A DNA stretch of 64,000 bases from Lytechinus pictus (Eukaryota), in assembly GCF_037042905.1 (NCBI RefSeq), contig NC_087250.1, forward strand, positions 4,652,001 to 4,716,000. The letters are read 5' to 3'. The translations under genes and the position numbers were made by a program. The first letter of the stretch is position 1, and each line of letters begins with the position of its first letter. The notes beneath the pieces were generated by a model, which was not told the origin of the DNA, searched no databases, and saw only the letters and a list, made by a program, of their open reading frames with translations. This document shows positions 36,003 to 64,000 of the stretch, piece after piece.

Positions 36003-37229
36003 ACGATTACAAATAATTGTTTTAATTTACAATAATCAATCATTTCATTTTAAAAAAACATCTGTTCATGAGCAATTTTGTTTCCTCTTCAATAATGAAG
36101 CTCTGCTCATTAGGTTGAATATTTCGAAAGAAACATTGTCACAGGAATTTAAAAAAATGTTACAATATAATGGAACGAGTAAATAAATACTGAATGATTT
36201 TTGAATTACCAAAATGCCTAGAAGTCCACCAAAACCAAATACAATCACCTTCGAACTTATTATTTTTCACCTTATTATTATCATGTTTTGATTGATAAGA
36301 TAAGTGGATAGCAAATAATGGAAATGACTATTCTCTGTAATTTCTTCCAGAATGTTCTTCCTATTAAACCTCGTTAATCTCAATGATTGTCTTCCTTGTT
36401 CTTGCTATTTATTCCTTTTCACTGACTATACTTGGAAAAAATAAGAACATGATAGACACTTCATTCATTGCCGAAATGAAACTGTAGTATCGCCCATATC
36501 ATACCTCTTTCAGTAACTCGCTGATCCGCAGTCCAGTCTCGGCCTCTCGGGCTACTTAAGTCGTTAAAAAAATGAGTTTATGAATGGCCCGAGCTAAAAA
36601 TAGCCCGCGCCAGGACCCGGGCTATTTTGAAGCTGCTTTTATTAGCACCAGAACGGCAATAGACTCGCGTGCCCGTGTTGTTTAATGGGTGATCGTAAAA
36701 AATAGTGCGGCTCTGCGAAAGTTACTGAGCGCAATTGTTACACAGACACTGTAAAAAATGAAGTGATATTTTAGCACTTAAAGTGCTTGTGTAGTGACTG
36801 CACTACGAGTGCTGATTTTCTAGTTCAAATTTAAACAGAGCATTTTACAGAGTATATGATAAATACAATTATATCTATATATATATAGTGTGATGATATA
36901 TATGTATATATATGCAGTCATAAATCAAATACAGTGATGTCAAACATGTGCTGCTCGTGTTAACACATGTCTCATGAATAATAATAATAATAATAATAGC
37001 GGTATATTTACCCAGGGTAGCCGCTTCAGTTCCGAAAACTGTTCTCCCAGCGGGCCCTGCTATTATTAATGAATATTGATTCAATTCCGATATTTCTGTA
37101 TGGTACATTGCCCTGTATTACGTTCGTTTAGAACTGATAACCTGGGCCCATTATTGTAATTGTTTCCCCTTTTTTATGAATAAAAGGTGATTTATAAAAA
37201 TCTGTAGAGCGCGTTATTATCCTCTTTTT

Positions 37230-37366
37230 TTACATCACGAGGGTGGGGGTTTCTTCGGTGGATTTACACGCAGAACCGCCTTGAGGTACGATTCGAAACT
37301 CGGAGGCTGTTCGACCAAGACTAGCAATCCATTCCCTGTTCATGTTCTCAGTCGTCATGTAGAGAT
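37230..37366 (-). CDS. PDZ + IL-1-like gene, terminal exon 7
   Basis: cag|(D)LYMTTENMNREWIASLGRTASEFRIVPQGGSACKSTEETPTLVM*; acceptor and phase are conserved in the paralogue at 63.6 kb. Confidence 0.8.
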
Positions 37367-40300
37367 CTGTGATGGGGTAAATGGACAAGATACGGTTACA
37401 CGGGCCTAATTACAACTGGCAGGCAAAAGATATTCATTCGAGCCAACCCATTCTCAATTTTTAAACATGATACTGATTGACACAAATGCATACGATTGAC
37501 AATCTAACACTGATTCTAGGGAGGGTACCTACTGAACTTCTTTTTTCCAAATTGGAAAGATGTATCACTACTTTGGAACTATTTTTTACTGGCGGAAGAA
37601 TTAGGGCCATTTTACTCTCTCAAGTGATAAATTGGATCCTGACAGGTGTAGTCTTCATAACTGCCGATTTATTTTTAAAATGAGCCGGTCGAGATACCCT
37701 TTTCTGGTCAGATATGGAATGTCTTACCATATATCCTGTCCACTGGTAGTAAACACTCAACCCGCGAATTTCCTCCTTATTTTTTATGATTTTTTTTTAA
37801 ATGCCACTTTAACACACGAGATCGCTATTTGGGTACGCTTCCCACCGCTCTATATTTACACACAACTTGAGTGTATTTTTTTTTCCAATATGAAACGGTA
37901 TGAAAGGATATTTATAAGGAATTAATTATCTTGACCGGAACGTCCCCGGTTGATCGGTAAACTGTAATAAAAAAAAATCCTCAAAAGAAGGTCATTACAG
38001 GCTCACACACGCACACTGAATCTGATATTCGGTTTTGCGCCATTGAACCCTGCAGTATATTTAGCGTTCCCGGGAATTGTCCCGTCTTGTAAAGTCAAAT
38101 GAGTTTAGCTGCAGCCAGTAGCGTACGTAGGATTTTCCAAAGGGGGGGGGGCAAATTCTTCCGCCCAAAAATTTGATAAGCAAAAAAAGGTTTTCAACCA
38201 CAAATAACGGATTTTGTACCAAAAAAGGTCTTCAAGTTCAATTATGGCTCGTCAGGGATCAGTTGTAACTCGTCAGGGGGGCAGACAATAATGAAGACAG
38301 TTTTTAGGAGAAACTGTGCTACAATAATGATAATAGAGGGGTTTTTTTTGCACCGCGACGCAGAACGCTTTCAGTAACACAGCAAATGTATTGTCAAATG
38401 TCCTTTGTGACAATTTAAAGAACAACCAAGTAGTCTTTGTGGAAAATTGGTAAATAAAATCAGCATGACCTGGAATCGGGACAAACGACATATTTGTAAT
38501 TTTTGTCGGCTCCAATATTTAGGACGAAACTCCTGTTCCGGTTCACCGATTTTCTTTTTTTTTTCGACAAAGTCCTCCCCAGCTAGTCTACAAATGTAGA
38601 CCCACATCTGCAGTGTGTGTACCACAACTGATTCAACGAGTCTGCATAGCAGACTAGGGCCCCGTTGTACAAAGAGTTACGATCGATCCGATCAATCCTA
38701 ACTCTATGGAAATCCATCAGTGTCATAATTTTTTCTACAGGAAATTTGCAAAATGTCCATTGTAATCAAAGGAGAACACTCCAAATTGTCAAGAAATCAA
38801 TTAATTTATGGATATGGATTCTTTAGAACTTTTTTTTAACAAACATGCATTTCATATGTTGACGTTGCTGGCTTTCCATAGTTAGACTGATTGGATCAAT
38901 CGTAACTCTTTGTACAACGGGGCCTATGTCTATTATGGCTGAAGATGTGAAATGGCTCGCTTCGATTGTCCTTTCAGGCTGGTGTGCTTCACAAACCAGC
39001 ATCAGCGTGCGCGCTGAGATCCCACCATATACGAACCTTTCAGAGTCTGCATAGCAGACTACTCCCCAGCTGTGCTTTGTCATTTGTCAGGCATTTTCAA
39101 TGTATTTACCCTGTTATTGAATCCTCCGTATGTCACTGAGCGAAAAAACCTTAATCTTAATAATAATAATAACCACTACACTTTAAAGCAGATACGAACC
39201 AATAGCGCCATCTAGAGTCCTCAACTATACTCATACCTTGCCAGTTTCCTTTCCCATAATGCTAGTGTAGTCTAGTAATATAGACCAACTTGAATGATAA
39301 CATGCTTATTAACTACTCAATAAATTTATACCGCAATAATTATGTTACCAAGTAGCAAAACAATTACTTTTCCTCTCAAAACATTTGTAATTATAGGTCC
39401 ATTTATCCTCTGTAGTATTAGTAGATATCTGAAAACGTATATTTGAAGACTATGTATTTATAACACACAGTCAATGAGAGACCACACACAGTTCAATCCA
39501 CCTTTAAGGAGAAACTGTGCTATATCATAATAATGATAATTGTTCTTTGAAGGAGAGGGAACATAAAACAAAGCAAAAATGGCACAACACATGCCCTAAG
39601 CTATATAGATCACTGCCTGGATATCCGACATTGATATTTGACACTGTTTTGAAAAATATTTTGAATATTTGATATGGGGGATGTATCACAAAGGTTTAGT
39701 ATGACTTAAGGCCACCGCACACCTTACGACTGTTTGCGATCCGATTTTGGAACAAATCGCATTTTGCTCATTTTCTGAAAATGTGAATGGAACATATCAT
39801 TTTATGTTAGGTTAAAATTAATTGAAAGAATACTAATATAACCATTTTGAAAGATTGCAAGCCTTTATTTTGGAGTAAAGGCCAAATTAGTTTCAAATCG
39901 TAGCCAATCGTACGACTGCTATGACGTCATTACGACTAGATATTAAATTTGCTTTTATTCTAAGAAGGATGATAGCATAGTCACAGATTTGAACAGAGGT
40001 ATTCGTACAATGATTTCAAACATTACGCAGTAAGATATTCCGTCTCAATATTAGCATCAAATTCTACTACGTTTTATTCCAAAATTGAGTCGTAGACCAA
40101 TTGTAAGGTGTGCGGTCGCCTTTAGGGTCGCACTTAAATGCCTAGTTGCGCGCGGTATAAAGTGAGATCATGCGAAGAGGACCTCCTACTGCTGCGTGAT
40201 GATCAATATACGATTGCCCGTTGCATATCATGTACACAGTAAAAACGCTGTTTAAGATTTTATAAAACGCTGTTTACTATAATTATGAAGCTTACAGTAT

Positions 40301-40634
40301 TTGTTTAACTGTTTAAACAATTATGTTTAATTTATTGAAGACTAGATATTGAAAATTAGACTTTGTTACTTAAGATTTAAACACTGGAAATAAGCTTTCG
40401 AGCTTTCGTGGGTCATCCTGTGCAAGCCTTTAGTTTTAATGCTACTGTATATATATTATGGTGACTTGCCAAATAAAATCAATCAATCAATCAATCTTGT
40501 TTAAACTGTTTTTATAAAATATAGTAATATAGTAAACAGCGTTGTATATTTTTTTTACTGTGTACGCGTCGGCATTTAAGTGCGACTTAAGTAAGTCATA
40601 CTTGAATCTTTGTGAAACAGCCTCATGGTCTTAC

Positions 40635-40752
40635 CGTCGTTAGTGTTGGCTGCCTTGATGACGGTTGAACCGGTAGGACGCAATGTCACGAAAAAGAACA
40701 TGTTATTCTGTGGTATCTGCGTACGGGGATCTCTCATCCAACGAGGAAACGC
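40635..40752 (-). CDS. PDZ + IL-1-like gene, exon 6
   Basis: Strong pyrimidine tract, cag|AFPRWMRDPRTQIPQNNMFFFVTLRPTGSTVIKAANTND|gtaaga; phase 0 to 1. Confidence 0.82.
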
Positions 40753-40799
40753 CTGACAAGAGAGATAGAGAGAAGGATTAGTGGAGACGGCTACGTATA

Positions 40800-40968
40800 T
40801 TTTATTTATTTATTTATTTATTCATATATTTATTCATTTATTCATTTATTCATTTAATTATTAATGTATTTATTCATTTATTTATTCATTCATTTATTTA
40901 TTTATTTATTCATTTATTTATTATTTATTTATTCATTCATTTATTCATTTATCTATTCATTTATCTAT

Positions 40969-41019
<51 letters not shown>

Positions 41020-41171
41020 TTCATATATTTATTTATTTATTTATTCATTTATTTATTTATTTATTAATTTATTTATTCATTTATTTATTCATTCATTTAT
41101 TTATTTATTTATTCATTTATTTATTATTTATTTATTCATTCATTTATTCATTTATCTATTTATTTATCTAT

Positions 41172-41210
<39 letters not shown>

Positions 41211-41223
41211 TCTATTTATTCAT

Positions 41224-41314
<91 letters not shown>

Positions 41315-41340
41315 TTCATTTATTTATTCATTCATTTATT
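40800..41340. repeat. (ATTT/ATTC)n microsatellite
   Basis: Direct reading. Confidence 0.95.
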
Positions 41341-42596
41341 CAAAAACAGGGAAGCCCATTCAACAAAGTGTTGGTCTCCCATGGGGCCCAATGACAGTGT
41401 ACATAACATAACATAACAATTATAACAAATTAATTTACATAGCAAAGAGGCATAAATAAATTAGTAAGTACATGTGAAGGAAATAAGGAAACATATAATC
41501 GACAATAAAAGCACAATGATTTAAAAAGCAGATGACGTGAAAGTAATAAGACGTGTATTATATACAATTACAATTAGCCAAAATCTGTCAAATTAAGAAA
41601 GTAAGCTGAAGTTGTGAGTCGAGGCTGTACAGTGTTTTACTTTAAAAATAACGGAAACCAGGATTCCCAGTTATATTTCTCAATATAGCCAAACGATTTA
41701 TAGTATTTCATTTTTCATTTACATCATCATAACATTTAGGTTTTCTTCTTTATTTTGATACCAACTATAATATTAATATTTAACGTCAGGACTAGCAAGA
41801 ACAGTTTGAAAATTCAATGTCAAAACCAAGTTGCGTAGGAAAAATGGGTCGAGGTTTGTTAAAATCTTTAGTTTTTTTTTTTTGAAAAAGTTTATTTCAT
41901 TAAAGATGGGAGTGGGTTCAGATTCACAAGTGAGTTTCTACGCAAATCGATTCCGACAAGCTTCCGTGTTCATTTGTATTCATCCAACGTCTGAACAGTT
42001 CACTTAGTAATTGGTCTCGAATCAAATTAGAGATTCCACTCTTACTATTGGTGTTTAATTTATTCATTTCATTTCTTCTTTATTTCACAATCGGACTAAA
42101 AAGTCAGGCTATGATAAAAGAATATTCAATTGTTATTAAATTATCTCTAAAGACACGTTTCGTATTCTTTTGGACACACTATACAATATGACAACCATGA
42201 GTGTAACTATTAAATAAGGAAAATTTGAGTTTGATGAATTTATGAAATATTGACATTTCATTTAACAAAAATACGCACAAGTAAAAAGATCAATGGAAAT
42301 TCGACAACCCCATAAACAGATTAAATTAAAAGCAAGCCATAGGAGGTATTAGACAGTGTGCTAGTTCGACCAACACAATGATGATGATGATGATGATGAA
42401 AATGATTATGACGACGAAGAAGATGATGATGATATGATGAAGATGATGATGGTGGTGATGATGATGATGATGGTGGTGATGATGATGATATGATGAAGAT
42501 GGTGATGATATGATGAATATGATGGTGGTGGTGATGATGATGATGATGATAATATGATGAAGATGATTATGGTGATGATGATGATGATGATGATGC

Positions 42597-42873
42597 GTGG
42601 AGCGTTGTGGCCCAGTGGATTAGTCTTCGGACTTTGAAACAGAGGGTCGTGGGTTCGAATCCCAGCCATGGCGTAATTTCCTTCAGCAAGAATCTGATCC
42701 ACAATGTGCTGCACTCAACCCAGGTGAGGTAAATGGGTACCGATAGGAAGTTATTCCTCAAGAGGCTGTGTGCGCTATGAACGCCTAGCTTAGCCAGGTA
42801 ATATAGGAGCGCCTTGAGCACCTAACAAGGTGGATATGTGCGCAATATAAATACCCTATATTATTATTATTAT
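42597..42873 (+). mobile_element. tRNA-derived SINE, family A, inserted in a (GAT)n tract
   Basis: Near-identical to 2696-2974. Confidence 0.85.
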
Positions 42874-43163
42874 ATGATGAAGATGGTGATGATATTATGA
42901 TTAAGATGATGGTGGTGGTGATGATGATGAAGATGATGATGGTGATGATGATGATGATGATGATGATGGTAATAATAAGATGGTGATGATAGTGATGATA
43001 ATAATGATAGTGATGATGATGATGGTGATGGTGGTGGTGATGACGATCACGATATATGGTGACTTTTTCGGCGTTGAAAGCGATGAATAATGGCAGTGGT
43101 GTTGCAAACATTTTCGATTATTATGACGACATCAAAGACAACCACGGAGGGCGATGAACTTAC

Positions 43164-43300
43164 TACCACATCAAGGGGGCCCGCGATGACACCCTCAATG
43201 CACATCGGTCTGCTGGATGACACGGGTTGGGAGATGGCGATTGGATTTCCAGGAGGGTTTCCTCCACCTACAACCTGGTAGTAGTTCAGGGTCACGTTTT
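43164..43300 (-). CDS. PDZ + IL-1-like gene, exon 5
   Basis: cag|NVTLNYYQVVGGGNPPGNPIAISQPVSSSRPMCIEGVIAGPLDVV|gtaagt; phase 1 to 0. Confidence 0.8.
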
Positions 43301-43820
43301 CTGTTGACAAAGTCACAAAGAAAAGAAAAGATGTACAGCAAAAACTGTGGTGTTAACCGATGTACATAGAGGACCACACCAGTTATTTTACACCGGTGTT
43401 AAATTGGTGGTGTTAGTTTTACACCTATAGGTGTTATTACAACACCTATGGTTGTTACATTTACACTCTTCGGTGTTATGTTCAATCTCTAGGGTGTTTC
43501 AGTTTCAGTTTTATTTTTTCTCATTTCCAACAAAACAATATACAAAATCCATCATAAATACATTTATAACAATTGAAATGTATAAAGAAACATGTAACAC
43601 AATATATTTATTTATTATGGCATCACCAATTTTTCCAAAGGGCAGATAGCTTTAGGGAACCTTGATTTAAGCTACGCCTACCATTGTTCTCTTCACCCAT
43701 TTCTTTCACAAAAGAGTTGCCAAAGCTTCACAATATATATATATATATATATATATAGGTAGGTAAGTATATAGTGATATACTGCAATATCTAATAGTGC
43801 TCGACTGTGTAGGAGCTGAG

Positions 43821-43972
43821 TATAAATAATTTATTGGTTGGATTGCTTAACTAAGCTAGTCGTACAGACTGTTTCACCCTAAGGCTCATCAGCGACCCCT
43901 GATGAGTCGCTGATGAGCCTTAGGGTGAAACAGTCTGTATGACTAGCTTAGTTAAGCAATCCAACCAATAAA

Positions 43973-43980
<8 letters not shown>
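43821..43980. ncRNA. Inverted pair of minimal hammerhead ribozymes (Penelope-like repeat)
   Basis: gtcg CTGATGA gcc ttag ggt GAAA cagtctg TA (c/t)gac on both strands. Confidence 0.7.
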
Positions 43981-44010
<30 letters not shown>

Positions 44011-44027
44011 TTGAGGCCGAAAGTTTA

Positions 44028-44770
<743 letters not shown>

Positions 44771-44993
44771 GTATATATGTATATGTAGTGATTCCCGACA
44801 GAGACATTTTTTCGGCATCACCAATTTTTCCAAAAGGGTCGATAGCTCTAGGGAACCTTGATTTAAGCATGGACCTATTAATAGGTCCATGATTTAAGCT
44901 ACGCCTACCATTGTTCTCTTCATCCATTTCTTTCACACAATATTTAAATAAAAGAGTTGCCAAAGCTGTAGTACATGTATAACTTCACACATA

Positions 44994-45025
<32 letters not shown>

Positions 45026-45046
45026 ACTCGCAAGTAATAAACTTAC

Positions 45047-45287
45047 GGCTGGTCGAAACGTACGTTGCCCGTGTTCTACCGATCTCTGTGAATCGATCCA
45101 GTCTCCTTTCAATGAGTTCAACTTGTGCCGACCTTCTGTATTGATAGGTCGGTGTCACGTCAAATGCAGTCTCGACCGGAAGTAATTCAATGAAAGAATT
45201 GTCCTCACTTCCGCTGTCCAACAGATGCCTTGAAATGGTTTCCACATTCGGTCGTCCATCTATCAACATGAAGCACAACAGAAGCTC
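45047..45287 (-). CDS. PDZ + IL-1-like gene, exon 4 (linker and start of trefoil); 5' boundary uncertain
   Basis: ELLLCFMLIDGRPNV...LLDSGSEDNSFIELLPVETAFDVTPTYQYRRSAQVELIERRLDRFTEIGRTRATYVSTS|gtaagt. The acceptor TAG has a poor pyrimidine tract. Confidence 0.68.
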
Positions 45288-46014
45288 CTATCCACATTTG
45301 TTTTCTTCATAAATTCGACTCGTCACATTAAATATTTGTAAATAGTTGTGGCACATATAATTTGTTTGTTTTTTTTTTTCTGTGTGTAATCGTTAGTTTT
45401 TAATTTTTAGTATTCTTTTATATTTATGTATGTATTACATATATTCATAGCTGTGACAACAGCTCAAGCATCTGCTTATATTGTCATACCACTGCATGTC
45501 TGCAACCTTGATATAATCAGTTATGTAAATGATCATAATTATACATTATTATAATGTAAAATTTAATGTATTCAATGTCTTGATGGTCATACTATGTACA
45601 TTGTCAAGACATGCAGATACGAATGAATGAATAAATAAATAATTAAATAAGACTAATGTGAGTCATATACTGTATCCTCAACAATAACTGACTATCTGAA
45701 TATAAAAACGGCCCAAGTCCAATTTTGGGTGAAATTGGGTTAAATATGGGGAATTTATCCTTATACAATGACTCATCTTGTGTATAAATGATAAATCTGA
45801 AATCATCTCAAAAACGCCTTCGCTTCAGGAGGAAAATCTGGTAGGAGTGTAAGAAAAGCCAAATTCCAACTCCAGGACTTGGACTTTTCTTACATCCATA
45901 TCATAGCGCCCTCTCTCATTACTTCTACTACTTACTACAGAATTCTACCATTTATATGAATGTAAGGGCCCGCCTACAAGGAAAGTGGATATTAATGTTC
46001 ATAAAAATGTACAC

Positions 46015-46617
46015 TTAAAGGGGAATCCAGCCTTGGCCATAAAATGTTGTGATGGGAAGGAGAAAAATAAATTAAACAGAATGGTGAAAGTTTGAAAGAA
46101 ATCCGACAAGCAATAAGAAAGTTATAGCTGCTTTAAAATTGAGATCACTAATACTATGTAGATTTCAAATTGGCAACTGGGTAAGTAAATTATGACAAGG
46201 GGCAAGGACAACTTTCCCATAGGCCATGTACTTTATTATCAGGGATTTGTGGTTTTCTTCTAAGTACCCATTCCCCTGGGGCAGTAATTTAAATATAACC
46301 CAGGTAGTATATTGTTTTATGTCCTCATGAAAGAAAAATATGATTTGAAATAAAACTTTTGGGAAAAATGACATTTTAGCCATAATATGTATTGGAGTAC
46401 ATGGAAGAGTAGTCCTTGCCTTACATCACTATGACATCCCATATGCGGCCAATTTGAAGTCTCCATGGGTATAGTGATTACCAATAATTACAACTTTAAG
46501 AAATTCATAACTTTCTTATTGTTTGTACAATATTATTCAAACTTTCACCTATCAACTTGTCTGATTTTTCTTTTCCTTATAAAAACAAGTTTTTATTTGG
46601 GTTGGATTCCCCTTTAA
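46015..46617. mobile_element. TTAA-TSD MITE, third family; copy at 50745-51346
   Basis: ttaaaggggaatccagcc...ggttggattcccctttaa; nested in an older element at about 45691-46786. Confidence 0.82.
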
Positions 46618-47899
46618 ATTTATTTCATGATGTTCTCTGATGTCTTTTGGCTAAATAGACTTTAATTGCCCAAATAAAAAGATTTTCTCGAAATGACCTC
46701 CAACAGAGGGTAAACGCCACCGCTGTTTAAAAAGATTTTCTCGAAATGACCTCCAACAGACTTGGGCCTTTTTATATTCATATACTCAATTGTCTAGCGT
46801 ATAATGTGGTTAAGACAAAAACAAAAACAAATGAGCATCAAAACATTTTAATTACTGGTTCTGTCTAATACCAGAGAAGTTCAACGCTCTTCAAATCTTC
46901 GGGTCAAATTAATACTAAAATTAGGAATGTTTGGTCACACTCAGTAAATGAAGTAACATAAATGTACCAAAAAAAATGATTATAAAACTTTATGAGTGCT
47001 ACATCTGTTATCAAAATGTTAACTCCATCATGTCCATGGGCGTAAATACATACTCTTGATATTTTCTGACTATGAGCGATATTATGACTGTTTAAAAAGT
47101 AATCGAGCTCAAATTAATACCGATTGTCTATTTTTTATCCCTCAGTTTTGGCTTGTGCAATTAAGACACCCATTTTGGCTATTTATAATTTCCATCCTTC
47201 GTAAAGGACACGAAACTGGACTTGAAGTCGTGAGGTCCTACACAACTTTTCGAACAGTTTATTTGAAACGCCTCTCTGTCTTCTACAATGGCGTAATGAC
47301 CCAAAACATTTGAGGGGGCTATAGATATGGCGTATCGGGGAAAACTTGTCAAAAAGTTGCGAGCGATCCAAAATTTCGATATTTTCAATACAATATCAAT
47401 TTTTCACCCTTCCTTATTTTTCTCGCCTGTTTTCTTTTCTGGGTCGTATTTCCTTTTCTCTTTTTTCGTCTCGGTTGTTTATTTTTGTTGGGGGGATGGG
47501 CAAGCGCACCAAGCCCCCCCCCCCTTCCCACATCTCTACGCCACTGGTCATATATTTATGAGAAAAAAACAAATATCACACCTTTTTCGTTGAGATGGAA
47601 AGCATATAACCACTTCTGCTCGTCTTGGCCCTCTTTCCGTTTGATAACCTACAATTCAAAAAAAGTTGAGCAAAACACTTTTTAGGGCTACAGTAGACTT
47701 AGGCCTTTCGGAACTCATATTTCGAGTCCTAATCCATTTGTCTCTCTAATTACTATTCTTAATTTAATTATTTATATTTGGGGGCAATTTTATGCCTCAA
47801 ATACAGAAAAAATGTTGATCATTAGAAATACTAGATATATCAATATTATAACTGCTTGTAAACTTAAAGTATGCATATATTACCATGCCCTTTCTTTTA

Positions 47900-48520
47900 T
47901 TATCAGATACAATACTACGTTCATTGACAATAAATGACATTTGACCTTGATCATGCGACCTAAGACTTGTCAGTGATACCTGATTACCCCTATATCCACA
48001 TTTTACAAACTATGTCTATAAACTTTGAAAGTTATGACAGCAATCTAATAATTACCTCCAAAATGGCCAAAGTTCAATAACCTTAAATGATCTTTGACTT
48101 TTGTCATGTGACCTGAAACTCGCATGAGATGTTCAGTGATACTTGATTACTGTATACACTTTCAGAGTTATGATGGTTATTCAAAAAATACCACCAACAT
48201 GGCCAAAATTCATTGACCTTTGACCTTGGTCATGTGACCTTAAGTTAGCACTTGTTCAGTGCTACTTGATTACTCTTACGTCCTTGTTTTATGAACTATA
48301 CCAATAAACTGTCAAAGTTATGATAGTAATTCAACAAATGCCCCCAACTTGGCCAAAGTTCATTGACCTTAGTTATGTGACCTGAAACTCGCACAGGATA
48401 TCTAGTGATACTTGATTACTCTTATGGCCAAGTTTCATGAATCAGATTCATAAACTTTCACAGTTATGATGGTAATTCCATAGATAACCTCAACTTGGCA
48501 AAAGTTCATATAAAGTTCAA
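47900..48520 (-). mobile_element. Degraded relative of the Helentron-like internal repeats
   Basis: Repeated tgaccttggtcatgtgacc / cagtgatacttgattac, reverse complement of the 6329 element core. Confidence 0.7.
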
Positions 48521-49663: not shown

Positions 49664-49772
49664 CAATCCAATACGAGTACCGATATCTGCCAAACACTCT
49701 AGGACTGCTAACTGGATTGTATTGGTCAAGTCAGTCTCAATGTTGTTGATACTCAACAATTCATCATGATTT
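49664..49772 (-). CDS. PDZ + IL-1-like gene, exon 3 (PDZ C-half)
   Basis: cag|NHDELLSINNIETDLTNTIQLAVLECLADIGTRIGL|gtaagg; PDZ D.IL.IN motif; phase 2 to 0. Confidence 0.82.
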
Positions 49773-52027: not shown

Positions 52028-53259
52028 CACAGTGGGCCAGAATGAGTTGAAAGTGCGCCAAAATTATATTCCGTGTTAGATTTTTACTTTAACATGTTGA
52101 CTATGGGTAATTTTGGGCGTAGAATCGACTGAACATAATCTAAAGCCGATTTGACGTCACCTTGATACCAAATTTTGATTGGCTACTTAAAACATATCTG
52201 TGAAGACAAATTACGCTAGACAATGTGTAGTATATAAATTTTGTGTTATGTGCTACTTTAAGATTGACCAGAGTGAATGTTGGTTTAGGCTTCTCACATG
52301 CCTAAAAAGTGTGTATGAGATCCTGAAAATAATTTTATAGCATCAAAATGATCATTAATTAGATTTATAAAAAGAAAAAATAAAATCTGAAAAATATTAA
52401 CCGTGCTTTATGAAGCTGTGTTTACTTGTGTAAAATGCAGTGTATTTAGCACCAAGAATGTATCACTATGAGGAGGGTTTTTGGCTGAAATTATTCTACA
52501 AGTAAGTTTTAACTCTGGAAGAGTTGTGAGTATAGCCCTTATTTGCGTTAGCAACCTTTATTTTGTTTACTTTATTTTGCCCGGAATTCATGTCATTTTC
52601 ATGGAATGGAAGGGGAATCGTCCTCGCCCTGCAAAAGCGAGCGGCAATTAATGTACACCCATACGGTGCGCTACGATGACTGCGCGGTATAAAATTACCG
52701 TTTTTGAACAGGTTTTGGGGGTGTTGTGTCAAGTAAAATTGGCTCTCACATGGCAACGGGCAAAAACGGGCAGCTGAATTTGGTATCGTCTTAAAGCTTA
52801 GACATCAGAAAAAATGATGATGATAAAAATTAGACGGAAATCCACGGAAATCCAAACGTTTCTAATGTAAATGCAAAAAACATGGATTTTCAGCCTATTT
52901 CGAGGAATAATCATACTATAAACCTCCTGAAAGGTGTCTTTTATCTACTTTGAGCCCTTTCACACACAAAAAAGAATATATCAGGATTATGTTGGAGCCA
53001 TTTCAGATTCCTGCATGAAAAACCTCCTGGGAAATTGTCTGTTTTTAACTAGGTTGTCATATACGCGACATTTCGCAAAATGTCACATTTTACGATTTGA
53101 GGTTGGAAATTAACAACCTTTATGCAAATTTCGGAATGAAATATTTTGCTGAAGTATTCTTCAAAGTGTTGTCTTTCAGCTGGGCATAACAAAAAATAAA
53201 AATCAGAAATTGCCCAAAATGACTTTTGGCGCACTTTTGTTTCGCCCCGGCCCACTGTG
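52028..53259. mobile_element. Non-autonomous Transib/RAG-like transposon
   Basis: cgtcg|CACAGTGggcc...ggccCACTGTG|cgtcg; bipartite TIR; nested in an older element at about 51848-53480. Confidence 0.85.
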
Positions 53260-55681
53260 CGTCGGGTCTTTATTCCAGCAAGAATGATACACTGTCCCAC
53301 GTGTGCCTATCTGTGTTCAGTGTGATCGTTTTTTTTAGCTAGATATTATGATTTCACAAAGTTCAGTTTATGTAACTGTACAAGATCTAGATCCACGATG
53401 ATATATCAATACTTTACCTTGGTTTTACAGACTTTCTCATGAAATCAATGTTTTACTGCAACTACGTTCATTTAGCTTTGAATGTAAGACATGTCTGCAA
53501 TAAAGTAATTCAGTATCTATAATGAATTTCCCTTTAAAAGTGCCATGAAATTCATTTGCAAAGTACTTTTTTTTCAATTTGATTAATGTGAGGATTGACA
53601 TTAAAAAAAAATAAATTCTTATGTTAATTGAATTTAAAAGGTATTGCAACTAACGAATTCTACTGCAATTCCTGAGGATATTAGCTTTATGGACCGTGAA
53701 TACATTCGAAGTAGTCATGACATTCATTGGCGGAAATAATATTTCATATCATTATGATATCCTTTGATTAAATCCAAGCGTAGACATAAACCACGGAAAG
53801 ATGTTATCACATTGTTTGAGAGAATATGTTCTTTCAGAGCCCAATAAAAGACTTTCGTTCATGACAGAATTTCTCCATCAATTGTGATTTTTTATTTATT
53901 TATTTATTTTTTGGTTTAGGTTTAAAGTATTTCTCATTCAAAATGTCATTCCATGTTTGTACGAGCGTAAGTCGTCGTGCATAGTTAAAGGAGAATGAAA
54001 CCTTTGGAACAAAATAGCTTGTGTGAAAACAGAAAATTGAAAGAAACAGATCAACGAAAGTCTGAGTAAAATCGAACAAATAATGAGAAAGATATGAGCA
54101 TTTGAAATTTTCGATCACTAATGCTATGGATATCCTCAAATTGGCAATGCGACAAAGATGTGTGATGTCACTTGTGAACAATTACTCTCCCCATTACTTT
54201 AGTATGTATTTCACTTAAATTGCCTTTTTTATCACATCTATCAGTAGATCAGTGTTCTTTCTATTGGAGGGCATGTAATACAGATTTTTGAAAAATACAT
54301 CATGGATAAAAAGTTTGTATCACCATTTAAGAAAAAGCAAAGAGACATTTTGAGGGTATTTTATGGTCCATCAAAGGGAAAGTTGTTCACATGTGACATC
54401 ACACATCCTTGTCACATTGCCAATGGGAGGATCTCCATAGCATTAGTGATTGCTATATTCAAATGCTCATAAATTTCTCATTATTTGTCCGATTTTTCTC
54501 AAACTTTCTTTGTTCTTATTCTTCGATTTTTCTGTTTCGACACACCCCTACTTGTTCCAAAGGTTTCATTCCCCTTTGAGATATGGGCCTATTTCGAAAT
54601 TATGGGAAGGGTCAGAGGGGAAGGGCTTATGCGATTTGAACAGGGGCGGCGATCTTGGGGGGCTGGGGGCACAGTACCCCCCCCCCCCACACTTTTTGAA
54701 GCACTGAAAAAGTGCCCTTTTAACGCAAGAAAAATGACCCCTTGCGAACGTGTTCTGTGCCCCTTTCACCTGAGAAGGACCCGTTTTATGTCTTCTTGTA
54801 AGTGCCCTTTCTCGCATCAGTGCCCCTTTTTACCGCACAAAAGTGCGGCAAAGAAGTCCTGTGCCCCTTTCACCTGAGGAGGACTTGTTTTGTGTGTCAA
54901 CGAGTGCTACTTTGCCTTCTCATATAGGTGCCCGTTCTTTATAATCAGATAAGTTGTCCTGAAAAACACATTTTCCGTGCCCGATGTGCGCCCGGTTTCT
55001 CTATTTAGCGCCGTTCTGCTCCCTTCTGCAAGTGCATAATAAATGAAAAAACTTGTAAAAAATAATCCTACGTGCCTTAAGTATCATGAGTCATGTGAAT
55101 GGGGTAGATGGGTGGGGCAGGGGGTAGTTGCCACCCCCCCCCCCGAAATTTTGAAAACTCACATTTTTTTTACTGCAGATTTTCACAAAATTCACCAAAA
55201 GTATACAAAAAATCATTCAATTTCACTTAACAAAATGCGAAAGCACCTATATGATAAACTCGGTCGCTTCACTCCCTCGGTTTTAAGCTTTTTTTTCCAA
55301 ATGGTTTACACGTGCTGCCCCCAGCGAAATTGTTCTGCATACGGCCATGTTTAATATAGCGCCCTTTTTGAAAGAAACGGTGCCCTTTTTTCCCTGTGTG
55401 CCCCCCCACTTTCAAATTCGCTCCGCCGCCCTTGGATTTGAACTTGAATTGAACCAAAGATGCGAAATGGCAAGTTGATCTGAAGGAAAAGAAAAATTTG
55501 GATAAAATCGAACGAGGCAATAAGACTCTCCCACATCTAGCGGCAAAAAAATTGAATACAACAGACATTCAATTCAGTTTGTACTGTGTAGGATTCCTCG
55601 CATCGTTCCATGAAGAATATTCATGAGTTCTTTTTTCTTTTTTTTTGGCCTTGTTTTGTTTAGTTTTGTTTGGTTGCTTAC

Positions 55682-55800
55682 CTTAGTCCGACCTCATATG
55701 CCAATCCGGAGCCATCGATATCCCTGATCACGTGACGACAATCATGAGAGTGAAGGCGAGCTCCAAAGTAAGTGACGGCGTAGGGTTTGTCGGTGACGTA
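55682..55800 (-). CDS. PDZ + IL-1-like gene, exon 2 (PDZ N-half)
   Basis: cag|YVTDKPYAVTYFGARLHSHDCRHVIRDIDGSGLAYEVGL(R)|gtaagc; PDZ FGxxL...G.A...GL pattern. Confidence 0.82.
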
Positions 55801-57503
55801 CTGTACAAAAATATTCCTAATATTCGGAAGCTGAGTGTAGATTGAATTTTCAAAAATGTGAATTAAAAACTATACATAAAGATTTACAAAGTTATAAAAA
55901 AAATATTAAGTAGAAAAATATATCGATATGTATATTCCTAATAATATGAATTAAGCTGCATACATATGAATATATATAACATTGAGCAGATAATGTTATC
56001 AAAAATATTAAATAATAAGATGTATTTAACATTATTATGTATATATACGTATAATATTGTGCAGTTAAAACCATTGAAGATATTACAAATATCAAATTAT
56101 TATATGTATATGTTTATACTGTGCATATCAAATAAAAGTTTACACTTTGAAAATGTCCTTGTAATTATAAACAGGGGCGTGGTTACTGGGGGCGGGGGGC
56201 ACGTGTCCCCATGCCCCCCCCCCCAGAAATAAAAATTGGCGGAGCAAAACAAAAGAAGAAAAGGGAGAAATAAAAAAAAATGAAAGATAGAAAGAAAAAG
56301 AGACGAGGAAAGATTTGAATCAATAGAAAAAAAATCAGACAAGCATAATGCTGAAAATTTCATCAAAATCGAATGTAAAATAAGAAAGTTAATTGAAATT
56401 TTTAAGTTTTGCTTAGTTTTCAGAAATGGTTACATGCACAATATTTAGTCACAAGTAAATTAAAGAATTGATGATGTCCCTCACTCACCATTTCTTTTGT
56501 TATCGGTTTGAATTATACAATATTTCAATTTTTACCGATTTGGCAATAAGGACCAACTTGACTGAACCATAAAATATTAAATAATGGTAATTTTACATGT
56601 TCAGGGAGAAACTTTGTTTCACAGGACAATGAGGACAAATTTAAAATATTCTATATTTCATATATTAAAATAAAAGGAAATAGTGAGTGAGTGATTGCAT
56701 TTAACTGTTTGGTGAAATTAAGCGAAACTTAAAAATGTCATAGCTTTCTTTTTTTTACATTCGATTTTGATGAAATTTTCAGTGTTATGCTTGTCGGATA
56801 TTTCTCCTTTTATTCCAATCAACTTTTTGTTGGGGTGGACTTGTTCCTTACATAAGCACATAAGATTAAGAAATAAGAAATTAACATTTTCATAAATTAC
56901 TAATAACTAAATTGGCCCTTTTTCAAAATGGAATATCGGCAAGTTTCATCTCACGCTTAGGAATAATTGGAAGATATTCATCATTTTTATATGATGACAA
57001 ACTGTCCTTAGAATGTCCCGGTCCTTGGTCAAAATAATAAAAATATCAGCTCGCGCTTCGCGCTCGCATCTTTTATAAAGTGTGATCCCCTCCACTTAGA
57101 AATTTTCCTACACAGTGCTTGAAATAGTGCTTAAAGATATTTAAAACATTTAGTTCAGAGTTAGGGTTTTCGATCCATATTTCGGATTGAGGGCTGGGTT
57201 CACTTCTCCCCGGCCCGGCACCACATTCCTCTTGAAAATAGGAATTTTACGTTATTTGATTAGGCTCACTCCTGTCAAGTTAAGTAAACGAAAAGCCTTG
57301 AAAGTGTAACATTGCACGCCATCTTCTTAATCGTTGTCCCTCTTTTCGTGAAGTGAAATCATATGCCCTCATCTACATTATATAACACCAATCAGTACCT
57401 GATGGGTGTATATAGAAATAGATGAAATAGTTATGAAATAACTCTGTTGACGTGCCTAATTAAAACATTAAATTTTGTGTGTCTTAATTACCCCGGATCT
57501 TAC

Positions 57504-57758
57504 CCGATGTTCGTCATCATTAAGTTCATCTGGTGATTCCTGCGGTGAAGCGGTGTTTACCGCCGCGGTTCCTTGCCCTCCAACCGCTTCCTTCTCTACC
57601 GCCCGCTTCACGCGTGTTTCTTCTGGGCTCGCCCCATCACTTACGCCAACGTCGCGTTGGACTTGGCCTTCCGTTACCGGTGATCCTTCTGCGGTAACCC
57701 TACCCGTTCCTCGGCTTTTAGAGGCTGAAGCCATCCCTTTTGAAGCGTGTATTCCCAT
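57504..57758 (-). CDS. PDZ + IL-1-like gene, coding exon 1 (MGIHASK..., low-complexity N-terminus)
   Basis: ATG with an upstream in-frame stop; ends DDEHR|gtaaga in phase 0; GC-rich coding-like composition. Confidence 0.7.
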
Positions 57759-59258
57759 TGTCGAAGCCACGATTTTGATGTGCAGGGAAAATATTTATTG
57801 CAACGTGTGTACGAACGCTTGGTCGACCACGGCCCGTTAAAAATCAAGTTTATATAATTCAATGGCGTAGCATGCTTTGAAGTTTGGCATTTATACAAAT
57901 TTTGATTTCGAAAGAACCATGGGTCGATGGATGGAGATAATACGCAGGCATAAACTTTTGTAAAATATTGAAAGGAATTCCATGTAACAAAATAAATGGG
58001 TTTCAATCTGTTTAGAGAGAAAATATAGTTTCGATTTCATTTTGAGTTATAAAATATTAGTGTCCTAGTTTATTTGACGAGGGAGGCAGTTCGTGGTAGC
58101 CACACCCTCTAAACATAAATGTTTATTGTAAATTTGTGTCTGTCTGTCTGTCTCTCCCCATCTGCCTCCATATCCTCTAGTTCAATCTCTCTTGATCTTT
58201 CTGCCAGAATCTGATAATAATAATTGTTCCATCTTTCTTTTCATATCTGTATTCCACAACGCAGCTACATGCATGTAGGCCTACAATTTATTAGTTATAC
58301 ATACACTGTAAAAACTGTGGTGTTAAAACTGACACCAGTTGGTATTAATAGAGGACCACATCCCGAGGTGTTAAATTTAAACCCTAGAGATTGAACATAA
58401 CACCAAAGAGTGTGAATGTAACAACCAAAGGTGTAATAACACCTATAGGTGTTAAAATAACACCACCAATTTAACACCGGAGTAAAATAACTGGTGTGGT
58501 CCTCAATGTACACCGGTTAACACCACAGTTTTTGCTGTGTACATGCTAGCCTGTACTCTCCTCCATACCCCACCCCCACACACTCTCGCCCCCCCCCTTC
58601 TCTCCCTATCTCCCTGTCTAACCCACCCTCACACACACACACGTCCAAGGTCGGTCCCAATTTTGGGGACAAAACAATCTCAATTGACGCCCCCCCCCCC
58701 GATTATCAATGCGTGGATTATACATTAGGCCCTAATATCATTGTTTTCTTAGTTCGTCTCTCTTTTTTTTCCAACTTCTTGAACAACCATATAGGGACAC
58801 TCACACCCAGCCTGCCCTACCCGTCACCCATGCACATCGCACCACGAACACTGTTTCACAATATCACATCCAATAACATCCATTTTCATCCCCTTTCCTC
58901 CGCCCAGGCTAGCCGAAAATAAATCATCACCCCGATCTCCCCCCCCCCCACCAAGATGTATTCAATATAAAATAAAGAATTCAAAAGGGGAAGTTTGAGC
59001 CCCGGTACATTTATCACTGATCCGTGACTGTAGAAATCTCGTTACAGAGCGTGACGAGTAAAGACTAAAACATTCCATTTAACTATTCCAGATATTTTTT
59101 TTTCTATTGCACACTCAAGCCGGATGTTTTCAAAAGTAATATCACAGAATAAGGGCCTTCGTCTATTTTATGGGCGTCGGTTAAACTAAGTTTATGATTT
59201 CATCGAGTTTCTGAGAATATCATTGCCTCAAAAAATTATTGACCCTATAATATGTTTT

Positions 59259-59268
59259 GGGATTTCCC
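59259..59268. promoter_or_regulatory. Candidate NF-kB site
   Basis: GGGATTTCCC, 1.5 kb upstream of the ATG at 57758. Confidence 0.35.
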
Positions 59269-60057
59269 GGTTTTTTTCCTTTTGAACCCCATTTTGGAAA
59301 AGCCACTTAAGGGCATTTGAAATCCGTGTAATTCTCGAAATTAGAATAGAGGTGAAATGCTATATACACATAATCGTTTGGTATATCGCCAATATACTCA
59401 AATATGACAACTATATATATATTTAATTGGTTTAATACATTCAGCCAAAACATAGATTATGCATTTACATGAAATCAAAAGAAATTACATTAAAATGTTC
59501 TTCCTAAAGAAATAACTTCATTAATCACAAAGGTACATGTCTTCCTTATTCTTGCCATTTTATTTTTCACTGACTGTACTAAAACTAAGATTATGATAGA
59601 CACTTCATTCCTTGCCGAAATGAACATGTATTATCGCCCATGACACACAGATTAACAATTTTGTACCGCTTTCAGTAACTCGCTGATCCGGACCAGTCTC
59701 GGCCTAAATCGTTAAAACAAATGAGTTTATGAATGGCGCGAGCTAAAATAGCCCGCCTGGATTCGTCAGGTACACTGGAGGGCTTATAATTCACTTTAGC
59801 CTGTAATAACATTTTTTTACCCCTAGACCATGGATTATGAACCGAAATAGGATTCTAGGGTGGATGAGTCAGTTGTATCCATTTTCAGTTAATGGCGGCC
59901 ATCTTGGACGCCATCTTGAAAATAACCACTTTCCCGGATGCAGATTTTGGTAGATTTTTAGTATGTTATTCCTGAGGTCAAATAGTACAAAAACCGTTAA
60001 AATATCATTTGTTCCGGGTAAGGGTATTTTTGGTCGTAAATTGACCAGTCTATGAGA

Positions 60058-60068
60058 GGGGAATTCCC
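60058..60068. promoter_or_regulatory. Candidate NF-kB site
   Basis: GGGGAATTCCC, 2.3 kb upstream of the ATG at 57758. Confidence 0.35.
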
Positions 60069-61182
60069 GAAACGTAGAGAGTAATTACATCTCTGCGCAA
60101 GTGCTATAAGCCCGCGTGCCCGAGTTTTTTAATGGGTGATCGTAATAATAGTGCGGCTCTCCTATAGTTACTGAACGCAATTTTTATGGTGCGGTGCGGA
60201 CTATTTTTTGTAGCACTGGCCTGATGCGGACTATTTTTTTTTGGCACAGGCCTGATGCGGACCAAAAAAAAAAAAATCATGAGTTACTGAAAACAGTATT
60301 ATAATAATGTACAAGACTACACAGCAAAAACTGTGGTGTTAACAGGTGTACATAGAGGACCACACCAGTTATTTTACACCGGTGTTAAATTGGTGGTGTT
60401 AGTTTTACACCTATATGTGTTATTACAACACCTATGGTTGTTACATGACACTCTTTGGTGTTATGTTCAATCTCTAGGGTGTTATTTTAACACCTCAGGG
60501 TGTGGTCCTCTATTAACACAAATTGGTGTCAGTTTTAACACCACAGTTTTTACAGTATACAACATATCAGAGCCCTAGAAATGATTTGTTGACTGGGGGA
60601 ACTGATGTAAAAAAAAAAAGGGGGGGGGTCACTAAAAAATGGAGATCAAATAATTGGTGCCCTCAATTCCCAGGGCTATGTAACCAATATACCTACACTC
60701 TAAAAACAAATCAGTGAAAATAACTAGTTAATCGGGTCAGCTGGGTGCAGCTGCTTTTCTAGTCATCTTTGACTATTTTCTAGTCGTATTTTACTGGAAC
60801 ACAGTTATTTCTGACTAGAATATATTATGTTAGAAATATGACTATCAGTGATTGCCATATCACTTGCACCCAGATGACTACTGGTCTAGTCAATTTGACT
60901 GATTTGTTTTAAGAGTGTATACATATACCGTGATATTATGATGTCGTTGGTACACTACAAAAGCTGCAAGCCACTACTTTTCTCAGTCTATTTCTGTCCT
61001 CTACATCTCTCTGTGATTTTAAAACATCATAAAACATAGTTTATATACATATATAATGTGTGACTTTACCTTTCCTTTTTTATTTGAGCTATGCTCCTTT
61101 TAAAATCTACGATTTTATTTCCACGGCATTTTCTAAACCTTTTGTGATTATTTTATTCCATATGCCGAAGCAGACTATTTCT

Positions 61183-61225
<43 letters not shown>

Positions 61226-61329
61226 TTATATGCACTTAGTTATTATATGCACTTATAAATCAAATACAGTGATGTCAAATATGTGCTGCTCGTGTAAACA
61301 CATGTTGTTACTTGAATGTTGATTAAATT

Positions 61330-63486
61330 GGGCGATTCCACACTAGAACTGCAAAAATATCATAAATTTCAACATGCTTTCAATAAGTCATAAGTAGTGT
61401 AATATTTTACAATGATACCTAAATTTTATGAAAATTATGAGTTTTAACCAAAAGTGAAGTCAGATACAGTCAGAATTTTAGATTTTCAATAATTTTGCTA
61501 ATTAAATAGTCAAGTACAAAGACTGAAACAATTATTGGCAAAGCACGAGAAGATTGAAATATTGCAGGTCAATGGAATAATGTATCATTGATGGTTCCAA
61601 ATAATATATACATCATTTTCAGGATCCATAATAGGGGCAGCCCTGATTTTTCCGAACCTATTTTTGGCAATGTCCCGTACGACACGTGAAAATGCAAAAG
61701 TTTTTTCTACAAATTTATTTTTGATGATGCAATTTATATCAGTTTCTCTTTCTTTGACCCATGGGTGATCGATTTTTCCCATAAGGATCTTATCACTGCC
61801 CTTCATTTTCCAATGATTGTCCTATTAAAAGTTGTCCCGTACGACACACAATATATAATGCATTTAATTGCAGGATTTGGATTCAGAAACTATAAATAGT
61901 AGGCCTATTTTAATTCAAGTAATTGATTTGACATAAAGTGAACTGAAAAAATAGTTTTTTTTATCTCCATAGAACATGAAATAGGTGATTCTAACCATTT
62001 TAATTGATTTCATGTAGGTGTATTCTGAATTTGTGAATCCATGAATCCCTTCAGCTTAACTGGTGATTTTCACTGGTCAGAGCAGGTTAATTTCTTTGTC
62101 ACTGAGCATGAAAAGAAAAACTTTATAATTGATTCACCCTAGCCTGGAAGATGACTTCCTCTTGCATGCTAATGTGGAATTATTATAAGATGTAAAAAAA
62201 AAATTACATATCAATCAACTATTTGGACTTCCCTTGATGATCACTAATTTTTTTATTTTGAAACTCCTTTTTTTTTTTAAGTTGTAAAAAAAAATCTGGA
62301 AAATAAGACAAACCATGTTGTTCAAAAAAAATCTGGAAAATAAGACAAACCATATGGTTTCATGAAATGCAGAAAGGTTTGAAAAAGTAGAACCGCATTT
62401 CTTTAGAAAAAAAATTATTTGTGGAATTACAAATGAGAGTTGTGACATATAATATATATAGATACATTTTATATGAAAAATTATAACATTTTACTGAGCC
62501 CCATAATTGACACAAACAGTTTCATTCATTCATTGTTTAAAAAGTGTATTGGAAATCATCAGTTAATTAACTAAGATATAACTTCACACAAAACCTCAAG
62601 TTTTTCAGCTCGTTAAAATGCTGTGAACCCTTGTTCATTTCCCATCATGAAAAAAAATGATAACATATTGCTCCCGATTGTATATATTGAGGTTACTTAA
62701 TTATATTGTCCTGAATGACTACTTATTAACAGACTTTCATGAAAAGGGAAGAATTTAGTGGGCAATGCTCCCCTTCTGATTGATAAAAAGTTCATTGTTT
62801 TATTCAGGCTGCCCAGTACAACACGCAAGTGTCCTGTACGACACACAGGTGTCCCGTACGACACAGAAGTGTCCTGTACGACACACAAGTGTCCCGTACG
62901 ACACATTATTTTGTTTGTGATATATTGACAGAAATATTCAGCTAATAGCGGTTTCTAACATATGAATGTCTTTAGTTTGATAGGATTATCATTATCATCA
63001 GCCAAATAAAGTGATTGAAGAAGTCAAAGAGACATGAAGTAAGAAAGTTTGGCTTCAATTTATAGAGATGTCCCGTACGACACATTTTGAGTGTCCCGTA
63101 CGCCACAATGTTCTCGAAAATTGTAATTTGCTTTATTTATTCATGAATTTTTATTTTGCTTTCTTTCATAGATGTGTTTGTTCTTGGGTAATTGAATATC
63201 AATTTGAGTTCAGTTTCTATGAAAAATATCTGTCGAACTCACAGACTTTAGAGTACAAACTTGAGGTTTCGAAAAAAGCAACTTTTTCTGCGTCCGTACG
63301 ACACATTACTATTTTAAATCTGTATTATACAGGATGTGAATTCAAGTCATGTTAAGTCTTGGTTTTTCTAACACTCTGGTAGTACTTGATGATCACCTTT
63401 AGTTACTGGAATATTTTTAGTTTTTCTGGTAAAAAAAACTGTCAAATGTTCTCTAAATGTCCCGTACGACACGTATGGAATCACCC
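61330..63486. mobile_element. 2.2-kb non-autonomous DNA transposon with AATT TSD (Sola1-like)
   Basis: aatt|gggcgattcca...tggaatcaccc|aatt; internal tgtcccgtacgacac repeats; empty site in the paralogous block at about 37083. Confidence 0.75.
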
Positions 63487-63548
63487 AATTCCGATATTTA
63501 TGTATTGCACACATCTGTAGAGCGCATTATTATTTTCTTATTTTTACA

Positions 63549-63673
63549 TCACGAGGGTGGGGGTTTCTTCGGTGGATTTACACGCAGAATCGCCTTGAGG
63601 TCCTGTACGATTCGAAACTCGGAGGCTGTTCGACCAAGACTAGCAATCGATTCCACGTCAGTCATGTAGAGAT
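63549..63673 (-). CDS. Terminal exon of a tandem paralogue of the PDZ + IL-1-like gene (rest lies beyond the window)
   Basis: cag|(D)LYMTDVESIASLGRTASEFRIVQDLKAILRVNPPKKPPPS*; near-identical DNA to 37230-37366 plus flanks. Confidence 0.75.
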
Positions 63674-64000
63674 CTGTAGGGGTAATTGGACAAGATAAGG
63701 TTAAACGGGCCTAATTACAACCGGCAGGCAAAAGATATTCATTTGAACCAACCCATTCTCATTGTTTTTTTTTTATTTAATATTGCTGATTGACAAAAAT
63801 GAATGAATATGATTGACAATCTAACACTCATTCTATAGGGAGGGTACCTACTGAACTTCTTTTTTCCAAATCGGAAAGATATATCACTACTTTGGAACTA
63901 TTTTAAATGAAATGAAATGAAATTTTTTTCACTGGCGGAAGAATTAGGGCTATTTTACTCTATCAAGTGATAAATTGCATCCTGTCAGGTGTGGTCTTCA

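Follow-up and report, generated by a model that had tools for sequence, protein, structure and literature searches.

Gene content of the locus

We analyzed a 64,000-nucleotide stretch of the Lytechinus pictus genome (assembly GCF_037042905.1, NC_087250.1, positions 4,652,001 to 4,716,000; hereafter the window) that contains a complete gene for an interleukin-1 (IL-1)-like protein and the 3' end of a second copy of that gene. A protein search with the exon at 45260-45048 as the query retrieved three proteins among 45 candidates. The best of these was L. pictus LOC129263531 (P0001, 394 residues), which is 100% identical to the query. This gene, referred to as copy 1, consists of eight minus-strand exons between 57758 and 37230 that are separated by GT-AG introns in phases 0, 2, 0, 1, 1, 0, and 1, and the translation of these exons is letter-for-letter identical to P0001. 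The features of copy 1 are as follows.

57504-57758, minus strand: exon 1, with the ATG, a Met-Gly myristoylation-type N terminus, and disorder at residues 1 to 85 (predicted local distance difference test score [pLDDT] of <50)
55682-55830, minus strand: exon 2, start of the PDZ domain, followed by a phase-2 intron
49664-49772, minus strand: exon 3, PDZ, followed by a phase-0 intron
47582-47648, minus strand: exon 4, end of the PDZ and a beta-hairpin extension, followed by a phase-1 intron
45047-45259, minus strand: exon 5, linker and trefoil strands 1 to 3, followed by a phase-1 intron
43164-43300, minus strand: exon 6, trefoil, followed by a phase-0 intron
40635-40752, minus strand: exon 7, trefoil, including the position equivalent to the FES motif (here IKA), followed by a phase-1 intron
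37230-37366, minus strand: exon 8, last trefoil strands, tail, and TAA stop
36351-37229, minus strand: putative 3' untranslated region (UTR), with AATAAA at 36408-36413; it comprises blocks 1 and 2 and the start of block 3 of the repeats described below
37367-37657, minus strand: segment of the last intron common to copy 2, mostly an interspersed repeat that was inserted before the duplication

An older version of the LOC129263531 protein (P0004) differs from P0001 at 19/85 residues in exon 1 and 6/39 in exon 7 and at none in exons 3 to 6. Strong polymorphism between alleles, an additional paralog, or a mosaic model could each account for this pattern.

Repeated blocks and the second gene copy

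The preliminary description of this DNA had noted blocks recurring in the same order and orientation, and self-BLAST of the window bears this out with four collinear block pairs on the same strand. Block 1 begins about 100 bases before the start of ~36450 that had been given for it.

36351-36608 and 59494-59756, same strand: 74% identity, E value of 7e-47 (self-BLAST and a targeted comparison)
36666-36740 and 60113-60186, same strand: 88% identity
36853-36970 and 61187-61305, same strand: 82% identity, with a TA run inside
37200-37657 and 63513-64000, same strand (block 3): 82% identity, E value of 5e-144

The blocks were also said to include the last exon and its intron. This is correct for block 3, which carries the last coding exon and part of the last intron, whereas blocks 1 and 2 are instead putative 3' UTR, with AATAAA at the corresponding position in each copy (36408 and 59559). 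Elsewhere in the window, the exon and UTR piece at 37200-37367 is matched significantly once, at 63513-63654 (92%, E value of 6e-55). Next comes a 14-base row (63661-63674) representing the part of the same exon across its deletion, and no further row has an E value below 0.35. Within block 3, the intron portion (~63684-64000) consists of a high-copy interspersed repeat, with a summed contig depth of up to ~3e5 in DNA run X1, so it counts as evidence only through its shared position beside the unique exon. Reads mapped to 63300-64000 came from 4 of 24 sequencing runs (X5, X11, X2, and X1) and mark high-copy repeat at 63684-64000 and everywhere left of 63487. None of the 24 runs is listed as RNA, and none contains more than 0.16 of the words searched. 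There was no read cover over 63516-63683 in these four runs, as expected for unique sequence outside those runs, and this has no bearing on expression or presence.

The proposal that the blocks are merely shared repeats was rejected, given that the last exon is unique and matches a gene model.

That model is LOC135154474 (XP_063956717.1, P0003, 303 residues), which was retrieved by the same protein search. The window exon at 63674-63552 encodes exactly its last 41 residues, which show a 4-residue deletion and a frameshifted tail private to this copy, referred to as copy 2. The upstream 262 residues are not encoded in the window, where their tblastn matches are to copy 1 exons 1 to 7 only. Because the copy 2 exon is the C terminus of a model with upstream exons, the second gene continues past the right edge of the window, as had been predicted, and residues for upstream exons beyond 64 kb do exist in this automatic model. 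Each of the two genes lies on a contig of 28,517,652 bases, and we judge from this equality that the contig is the same. Collinear, unique, same-strand sequence together with the second gene model upstream confirms that the repeated blocks are a real tandem paralog.

63549-63673, minus strand: copy 2 last coding exon, with a 12-nucleotide in-frame deletion, a Trp-to-Ser change, a 5-nucleotide insertion near 63600-63604, and a TGA stop at 63551-63549
63674-64000, minus strand: copy 2 last intron, with an intact AG acceptor; high-copy repeat from ~63684, running off the window
59494-63548, minus strand: copy 2 putative 3' UTR, ~4.0 kb to the AATAAA at 59559, compared with ~0.8 kb in copy 1

The 5-nucleotide insertion shifts the reading frame after the last trefoil strand. 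The copies are arranged head to tail, with copy 2 located 5' of copy 1 on the same strand, and the putative poly(A) signal of copy 2 lies 1.8 kb before the ATG of copy 1. No short protein fragments resembling the copy 2 trefoil were found among four candidates.

Insertions distinguishing the copies

Independent transposable element insertions had been proposed to distinguish the copies. This is the case for copy 2, which carries the following private sequences.

61330-63486, strand not assigned: terminal inverted repeat (TIR)-type insertion of 2,157 bp, with a 4-bp AATT target-site duplication, an empty site in copy 1, and 11 internal copies of a 23-nucleotide motif
60318-60559, strand not assigned: miniature inverted-repeat transposable element (MITE), with three more copies in the window at ~32370, 43335, and 58300
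60687-60926, strand not assigned: second TIR element, with 41-nucleotide arms
59757-60110, strand not assigned: segment of ~350 bp that splits block 1

The right end of the 2,157-bp insertion is also marked by loose read ends at 63486-63488 in three runs. This element, the MITE, and the second TIR element account for most of the growth of the putative copy 2 UTR from ~0.8 to 4.0 kb. The segments found only in copy 1 (~36741-36850, 36977-37066, and 37108-37198) are only candidate transposable elements and could be deletions in copy 2.

Perfect palindromes of the kappa-B type occur at 59259-59268 and 60059-60068, 1.5 and 2.3 kb upstream of the copy 1 ATG, the second inside a segment private to copy 2. 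With palindromes counted twice, kappa-B-like sites in the window are not clearly above chance (10 strand-matches versus a mean of 4.6, with 3 of 100 shuffles reaching 10).

Predicted fold and relationship to IL-1anc

The label IL-1-like, first given from the sequence, is supported by the predicted fold and by homology to the IL-1anc proteins of Fontenla-Iglesias et al. (2026, PMC13736523), which combine a PDZ domain with an IL-1 trefoil and for which five genes are reported in Strongylocentrotus purpuratus. The AF2 model of copy 1 has a pLDDT of at least 90 for 212 of 394 residues and forms a beta-trefoil over residues 228 to 380. With this model, the top 27 ranks among the Foldseek matches listed were IL-18 or IL-1 chains, the best being IL-18 and IL-1beta. 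In VIA (48,161 representatives), the copy 1 trefoil matched IL-1alpha with a Z score of 16.0 (root mean square deviation of 2.4, 138 residues aligned) and IL-33 with a Z score of 14.7. Other beta-trefoils (FGF, ricin-B lectins, and fascin) share the fold at Z scores of 12 to 14.6, under that of IL-1alpha, and lack both the PDZ-trefoil architecture and a sequence link. Language-model neighbors were IL-18, IL-1, and IL-33 at 0.83 to 0.88, which we treat only as a lead. The vertebrate IL-1 superfamily (IL-1alpha, IL-1beta, IL-18, and IL-33, with tandem gene clusters) provides the best structural matches, although identity is 10 to 17% and the urchin proteins carry a PDZ domain as a putative pro-region. 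The copy 2 model is still an IL-1-like trefoil (Z score of 15.2, 123 aligned) with one strand segment absent, a prediction that leans on the alignment of intact relatives.

The PDZ region of copy 1 (residues 89 to 177) has confident strands and helices in the model and matches Pfam PDZ_6 and PDZ with E values of 0.017 and 0.046, under the curated cutoff; the published LpicIL-1.4 is similarly weak (E value of 0.024). Copy 1 aligns to the PDZ of published members.

Homology was assessed with a profile of 11 sequences from the clade of copy 1 and copy 2, which had 27 matches at an E value of ≤0.001 among 1.84 billion representatives. These include five listed or near-identical IL-1anc entries, among them LpicIL-1.4 (7e-25), PminIL-1.3 (7e-15), AplaIL-1.6, and PminIL-1.7. 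Unrelated or partial sequences make up at least four of the 27 matches (P0023 and P0033 and, by length and repeat number, P0037 and P0038). P0001 and LpicIL-1.4 are 24% identical over 307 columns that span both domains (BLASTP E value of 2e-22), and a second BLASTP comparison to a listed IL-1anc protein gave 4e-14.

The copy 1 trefoil is encoded by four exons with introns in phases 1, 0, and 1, and the succession of phase 1 and phase 0 presumably resembles IL1B. Published IL-1anc trefoils occupy three to five exons with conserved phasing of the two central introns (PMC13736523). The (F/L)ES motif of strand 9, described as largely or partially conserved in IL-1anc (PMC13736523), is replaced by IKA in both copies and by FKA or FEA in most paralogs. 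LpicIL-1.4, a listed member, also lacks a literal FES at this position, so the motif is not an absolute criterion. In the window, copy 1 has as neighbors a TBC gene and an EF-hand gene, with one flank seen. Linkage to ESD or EIF2A concerns one IL-1anc paralogue per species, and IL-1 genes also occur outside those loci (PMC13736523).

The nearest listed members are LpicIL-1.4 (LOC129260728), LvarIL-1.3 (LOC121416031), PminIL-1.3, PminIL-1.7, and AplaIL-1.6. The two copies share with IL-1anc a PDZ followed by an IL-1-type trefoil, a length under 500 residues, a trefoil on four exons, and homology over both domains. For that family, lineage-specific expansion has already been reported from sea urchins, as have tandem copies from lamprey (PMC13736523). 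They differ from the listed proteins in forming a separate clade at ~24% identity, in lying on contigs of a different length from those of LpicIL-1.4 and LvarIL-1.3, in having IKA, FKA, or FEA at the FES position, and in the Met-Gly-x-x-x-Ser-Lys start of most clade members.

An echinoid clade absent from the published gene list

Current clade models number three in L. pictus, two in Lytechinus variegatus, and six in S. purpuratus. The locus had been described as part of a cluster, and a pair is evident here; the third L. pictus model, LOC129263514, is placed on a contig of the same size (28,517,652 bases). Each of the six S. purpuratus models lies on a scaffold of 52,437,917 bases, and one of them, LOC105447172 (739 residues), holds two PDZ-trefoil units in one model, a direct sign of a tandem array. 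Trees were built from 21 of the 28 rows of alignment A3, near-duplicates and fragments excluded, with 19, 20, and 21 rows passing the length filter. In these trees, the Lytechinus genes around copy 1 group apart from four S. purpuratus genes, which indicates that the expansions have been independent at least in part.

Invertebrate IL-1 was described only in 2025 and 2026, with five genes per sea urchin species, and Table S2 of PMC13736523 has five each for L. pictus, L. variegatus, and S. purpuratus. The table contains neither LOC129263531, LOC135154474, LOC129263514, LOC121416645, nor LOC121417426, nor any of the S. purpuratus models found here. The search in that study relied on PDZ profiles and the F/LES motif, and its authors warned of missed divergent members. 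The clade was probably missed because its PDZ scores are below threshold and its FES motif has drifted. Six clade LOC numbers had no mention in the literature searched, which mostly excludes subscription journals, and a search for IL-1anc together with PDZ yielded nothing beyond PMC13736523 and its preprint. Judged from sequence, both copies belong to a putative echinoid-specific branch of IL-1anc that is left out of the published gene list. This further clade of at least three, two, and six models leaves the published counts and knockdown designs incomplete.

The PROSITE myristoylation pattern matches the N terminus in 14 of 19 clade rows, isoforms and old versions included, the rows without it being P0003, P0008, P0009, P0017, and P0020. 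Of 11 more distant rows, 5 match as well. The Met-Gly motif is kept between Lytechinus and Strongylocentrotus, and the rest of exon 1 is not. The motif match suggests that most intact clade members begin with a signal of the membrane-anchoring (myristoylation) type. The string "myristoyl" has 0 occurrences in the text and seven supplements of PMC13736523.

Asymmetric divergence of the two copies

The two domains have diverged to very different degrees. Copy 1 and copy 2 differ at 5/134 residues in positions 86 to 219 and at 38/141 in positions 220 to 376 (Fisher P = 4e-8), while copy 1 and its L. variegatus orthologue differ at 13/134 in the PDZ region and 20/157 in the trefoil (P = 0.46). Private trefoil changes are concentrated in copy 2 (27 versus 6 in copy 1; P = 3e-4), and the second half of exon 5 has differences at 15/34 residues. 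In addition, an 11-residue segment that makes up strand E257-261 in copy 1 is missing from the copy 2 model. The copy 2 frameshift is a derived state: the copy 1 frame is retained in L. variegatus P0005 and in P0004, and it can still be read in copy 2. Outside the coding sequence, substitutions affect 73/704 columns (10.4%) of the blocks, compared with 4/125 in the last exon (gaps ignored).

These distances bear on whether copy 2 could be an uncollapsed second haplotype placed in tandem by the assembly. The near identity of the PDZ exons and of the last exon would fit such an artifact, P0001 and P0004 already differ in exon 7 (6/39 residues), and the two L. variegatus models that are ~97% alike may themselves be such a case. 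However, the copy 2 trefoil is twice as far from copy 1 as is that of the L. variegatus orthologue, the 10% noncoding substitutions are accompanied by at least three private insertions, and P0004, presumably another haplotype, matches copy 1 in exons 3 to 6 and in the frame of the tail. We regard an assembly artifact as very improbable.

The difference between the copies jumps sharply from ~4% to ~44% inside exon 5. This would fit a real tandem copy for which the model LOC135154474 is a chimera of two neighboring copies or a conversion mosaic, with possibly at least three copies beside the window. The contrast between PDZ and trefoil would then not reflect the history of a single gene. In exons 2 and 7, some residues of P0004 agree with copy 2, and automatic models in this family do fuse tandem units (P0018 and P0019). 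The switch, however, falls within one exon, unlike a model fusion at an intron, although a conversion tract would fit. A composite origin of the model therefore appears doubtful, if less so than an artifact of assembly.

We favor, with a probability of roughly 0.6, a tandem duplication of a PDZ-trefoil IL-1anc gene followed by birth-and-death evolution with a released trefoil in copy 2. The head-to-tail duplication would most likely have arisen by unequal crossing-over. Copy 1 is the intact member, with a candidate lipid-anchor-type N terminus, the PDZ, and a full trefoil. By analogy with tested IL-1anc proteins, it may be a leaderless pro-cytokine whose trefoil is released to act in immune signaling. 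Caspase cleavage before the trefoil was demonstrated for only one of the proteins in PMC13736523, where induction by immune challenge is a listed feature of IL-1anc. The PDZ exons of copy 2 may be held by purifying selection or gene conversion, while its trefoil, freed from constraint, would be drifting or decaying within a small echinoid-specific IL-1anc cluster.

Several observations weigh against this interpretation. For copy 2, the exons upstream of the last one come solely from an automatic model. That model has no exon 1, its 11-residue gap begins at a cryptic GT donor also present in copy 1 exon 5, and its 2-residue insertion coincides with a shifted acceptor, so some of the copy 2 lesions may be annotation choices. 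The PDZ region has one to two private changes, against the ~15 that neutral evolution would yield, and the last exon has diverged less than the flanking sequence (P = 0.007). A whole-gene pseudogene fits these values poorly, and conversion, selection, or a chimeric model is needed. The trefoil excess over neutral is significant at a branch rate of 5.2% (P = 0.006) and not at 7.5% (P = 0.19). The aligned UTR blocks probably understate the neutral rate, so positive selection is not a firm claim. The trees place copy 2, copy 1, and the L. variegatus genes in an open fork, which leaves the duplication undated relative to the split of L. pictus and L. variegatus. As for the fold, the best non-IL-1 trefoil in VIA reached a Z score of 14.6, a modest margin of only ~1.4 below IL-1alpha, and Pfam IL1 matched neither copy and neither last exon.

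The same duplication could instead have produced a functional, diverging paralog, with positive selection on a receptor-facing trefoil (a decoy, an antagonist, or a ligand of another receptor) and PDZ-mediated localization kept. The reading frame is open in the model, the frameshift lies beyond the last strand, the model folds as an IL-1-like trefoil, and the cluster of changes in exon 5 and the excess at the lower neutral rate accompany a conserved PDZ. Other changes look like damage: a strand segment kept in all other full-length clade members is lost, as are exon 1 in the model and a Trp that is retained by 7 of the 8 other clade rows extending to this position (alignment A2). At higher neutral rates, there is no excess. 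We consider a functional paralog unlikely, while giving it more weight than a chimera. A broader proposal, which we hold to be improbable, is that the clade is an unrecognized N-myristoylated branch of IL-1anc that approximately doubles the sea urchin IL-1 repertoire and expands by repeated tandem duplication, with copy 2 as a new natural receptor antagonist or decoy. If so, a copy 2 with a rapidly remodeled, strand-deleted trefoil and a nearly unchanged PDZ would give an invertebrate counterpart of the IL-1/IL-1RA pair. Tandem expansion of an immune family is ordinary in itself. The locus offers a young gene pair in a laboratory model species, in which trefoil and PDZ evolve at very different rates.

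Other features of the window

The remaining sequence contains two further genes, several repeats, and a retrotransposon end.

1-13430, plus strand: 3' part of a Rab-GAP TBC gene (Pfam E value of 2.5e-14 for the exon at 11097-11348)
3846-11123: tandem array of ~135-nucleotide units in a TBC intron
13391-14634: end of the last TBC coding exon, recurring in its 3' UTR as several degenerate copies (68 to 74%)
~24361-33820, plus strand: calmodulin/Spec-like EF-hand gene, convergent with copy 1, with exons at 24361, 25025, 30394, and probably 33793 and Pfam EF-hand scores under the cutoff
25717-29738: 4-kb near-perfect inverted repeat in an intron of the EF-hand gene, with arms of at least 1,642 bases at 98.3%
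34866-35580: 3' end of a retrotransposon lacking long terminal repeats (non-LTR; zf-RVT, E value of 3e-9), located between the EF-hand gene and copy 1 and carrying a poly(A) tail

The inverted repeat has AT-rich 31-nucleotide tandem units near its ends and may be a foldback-type element or an assembly feature. The repeat unit of the TBC intron array is similar to the splice acceptor and opening bases of the exon that follows (it matches 11063-11123). With a 1,344-nucleotide higher-order repeat at 98 to 99%, the array places many decoy acceptors ahead of one exon.

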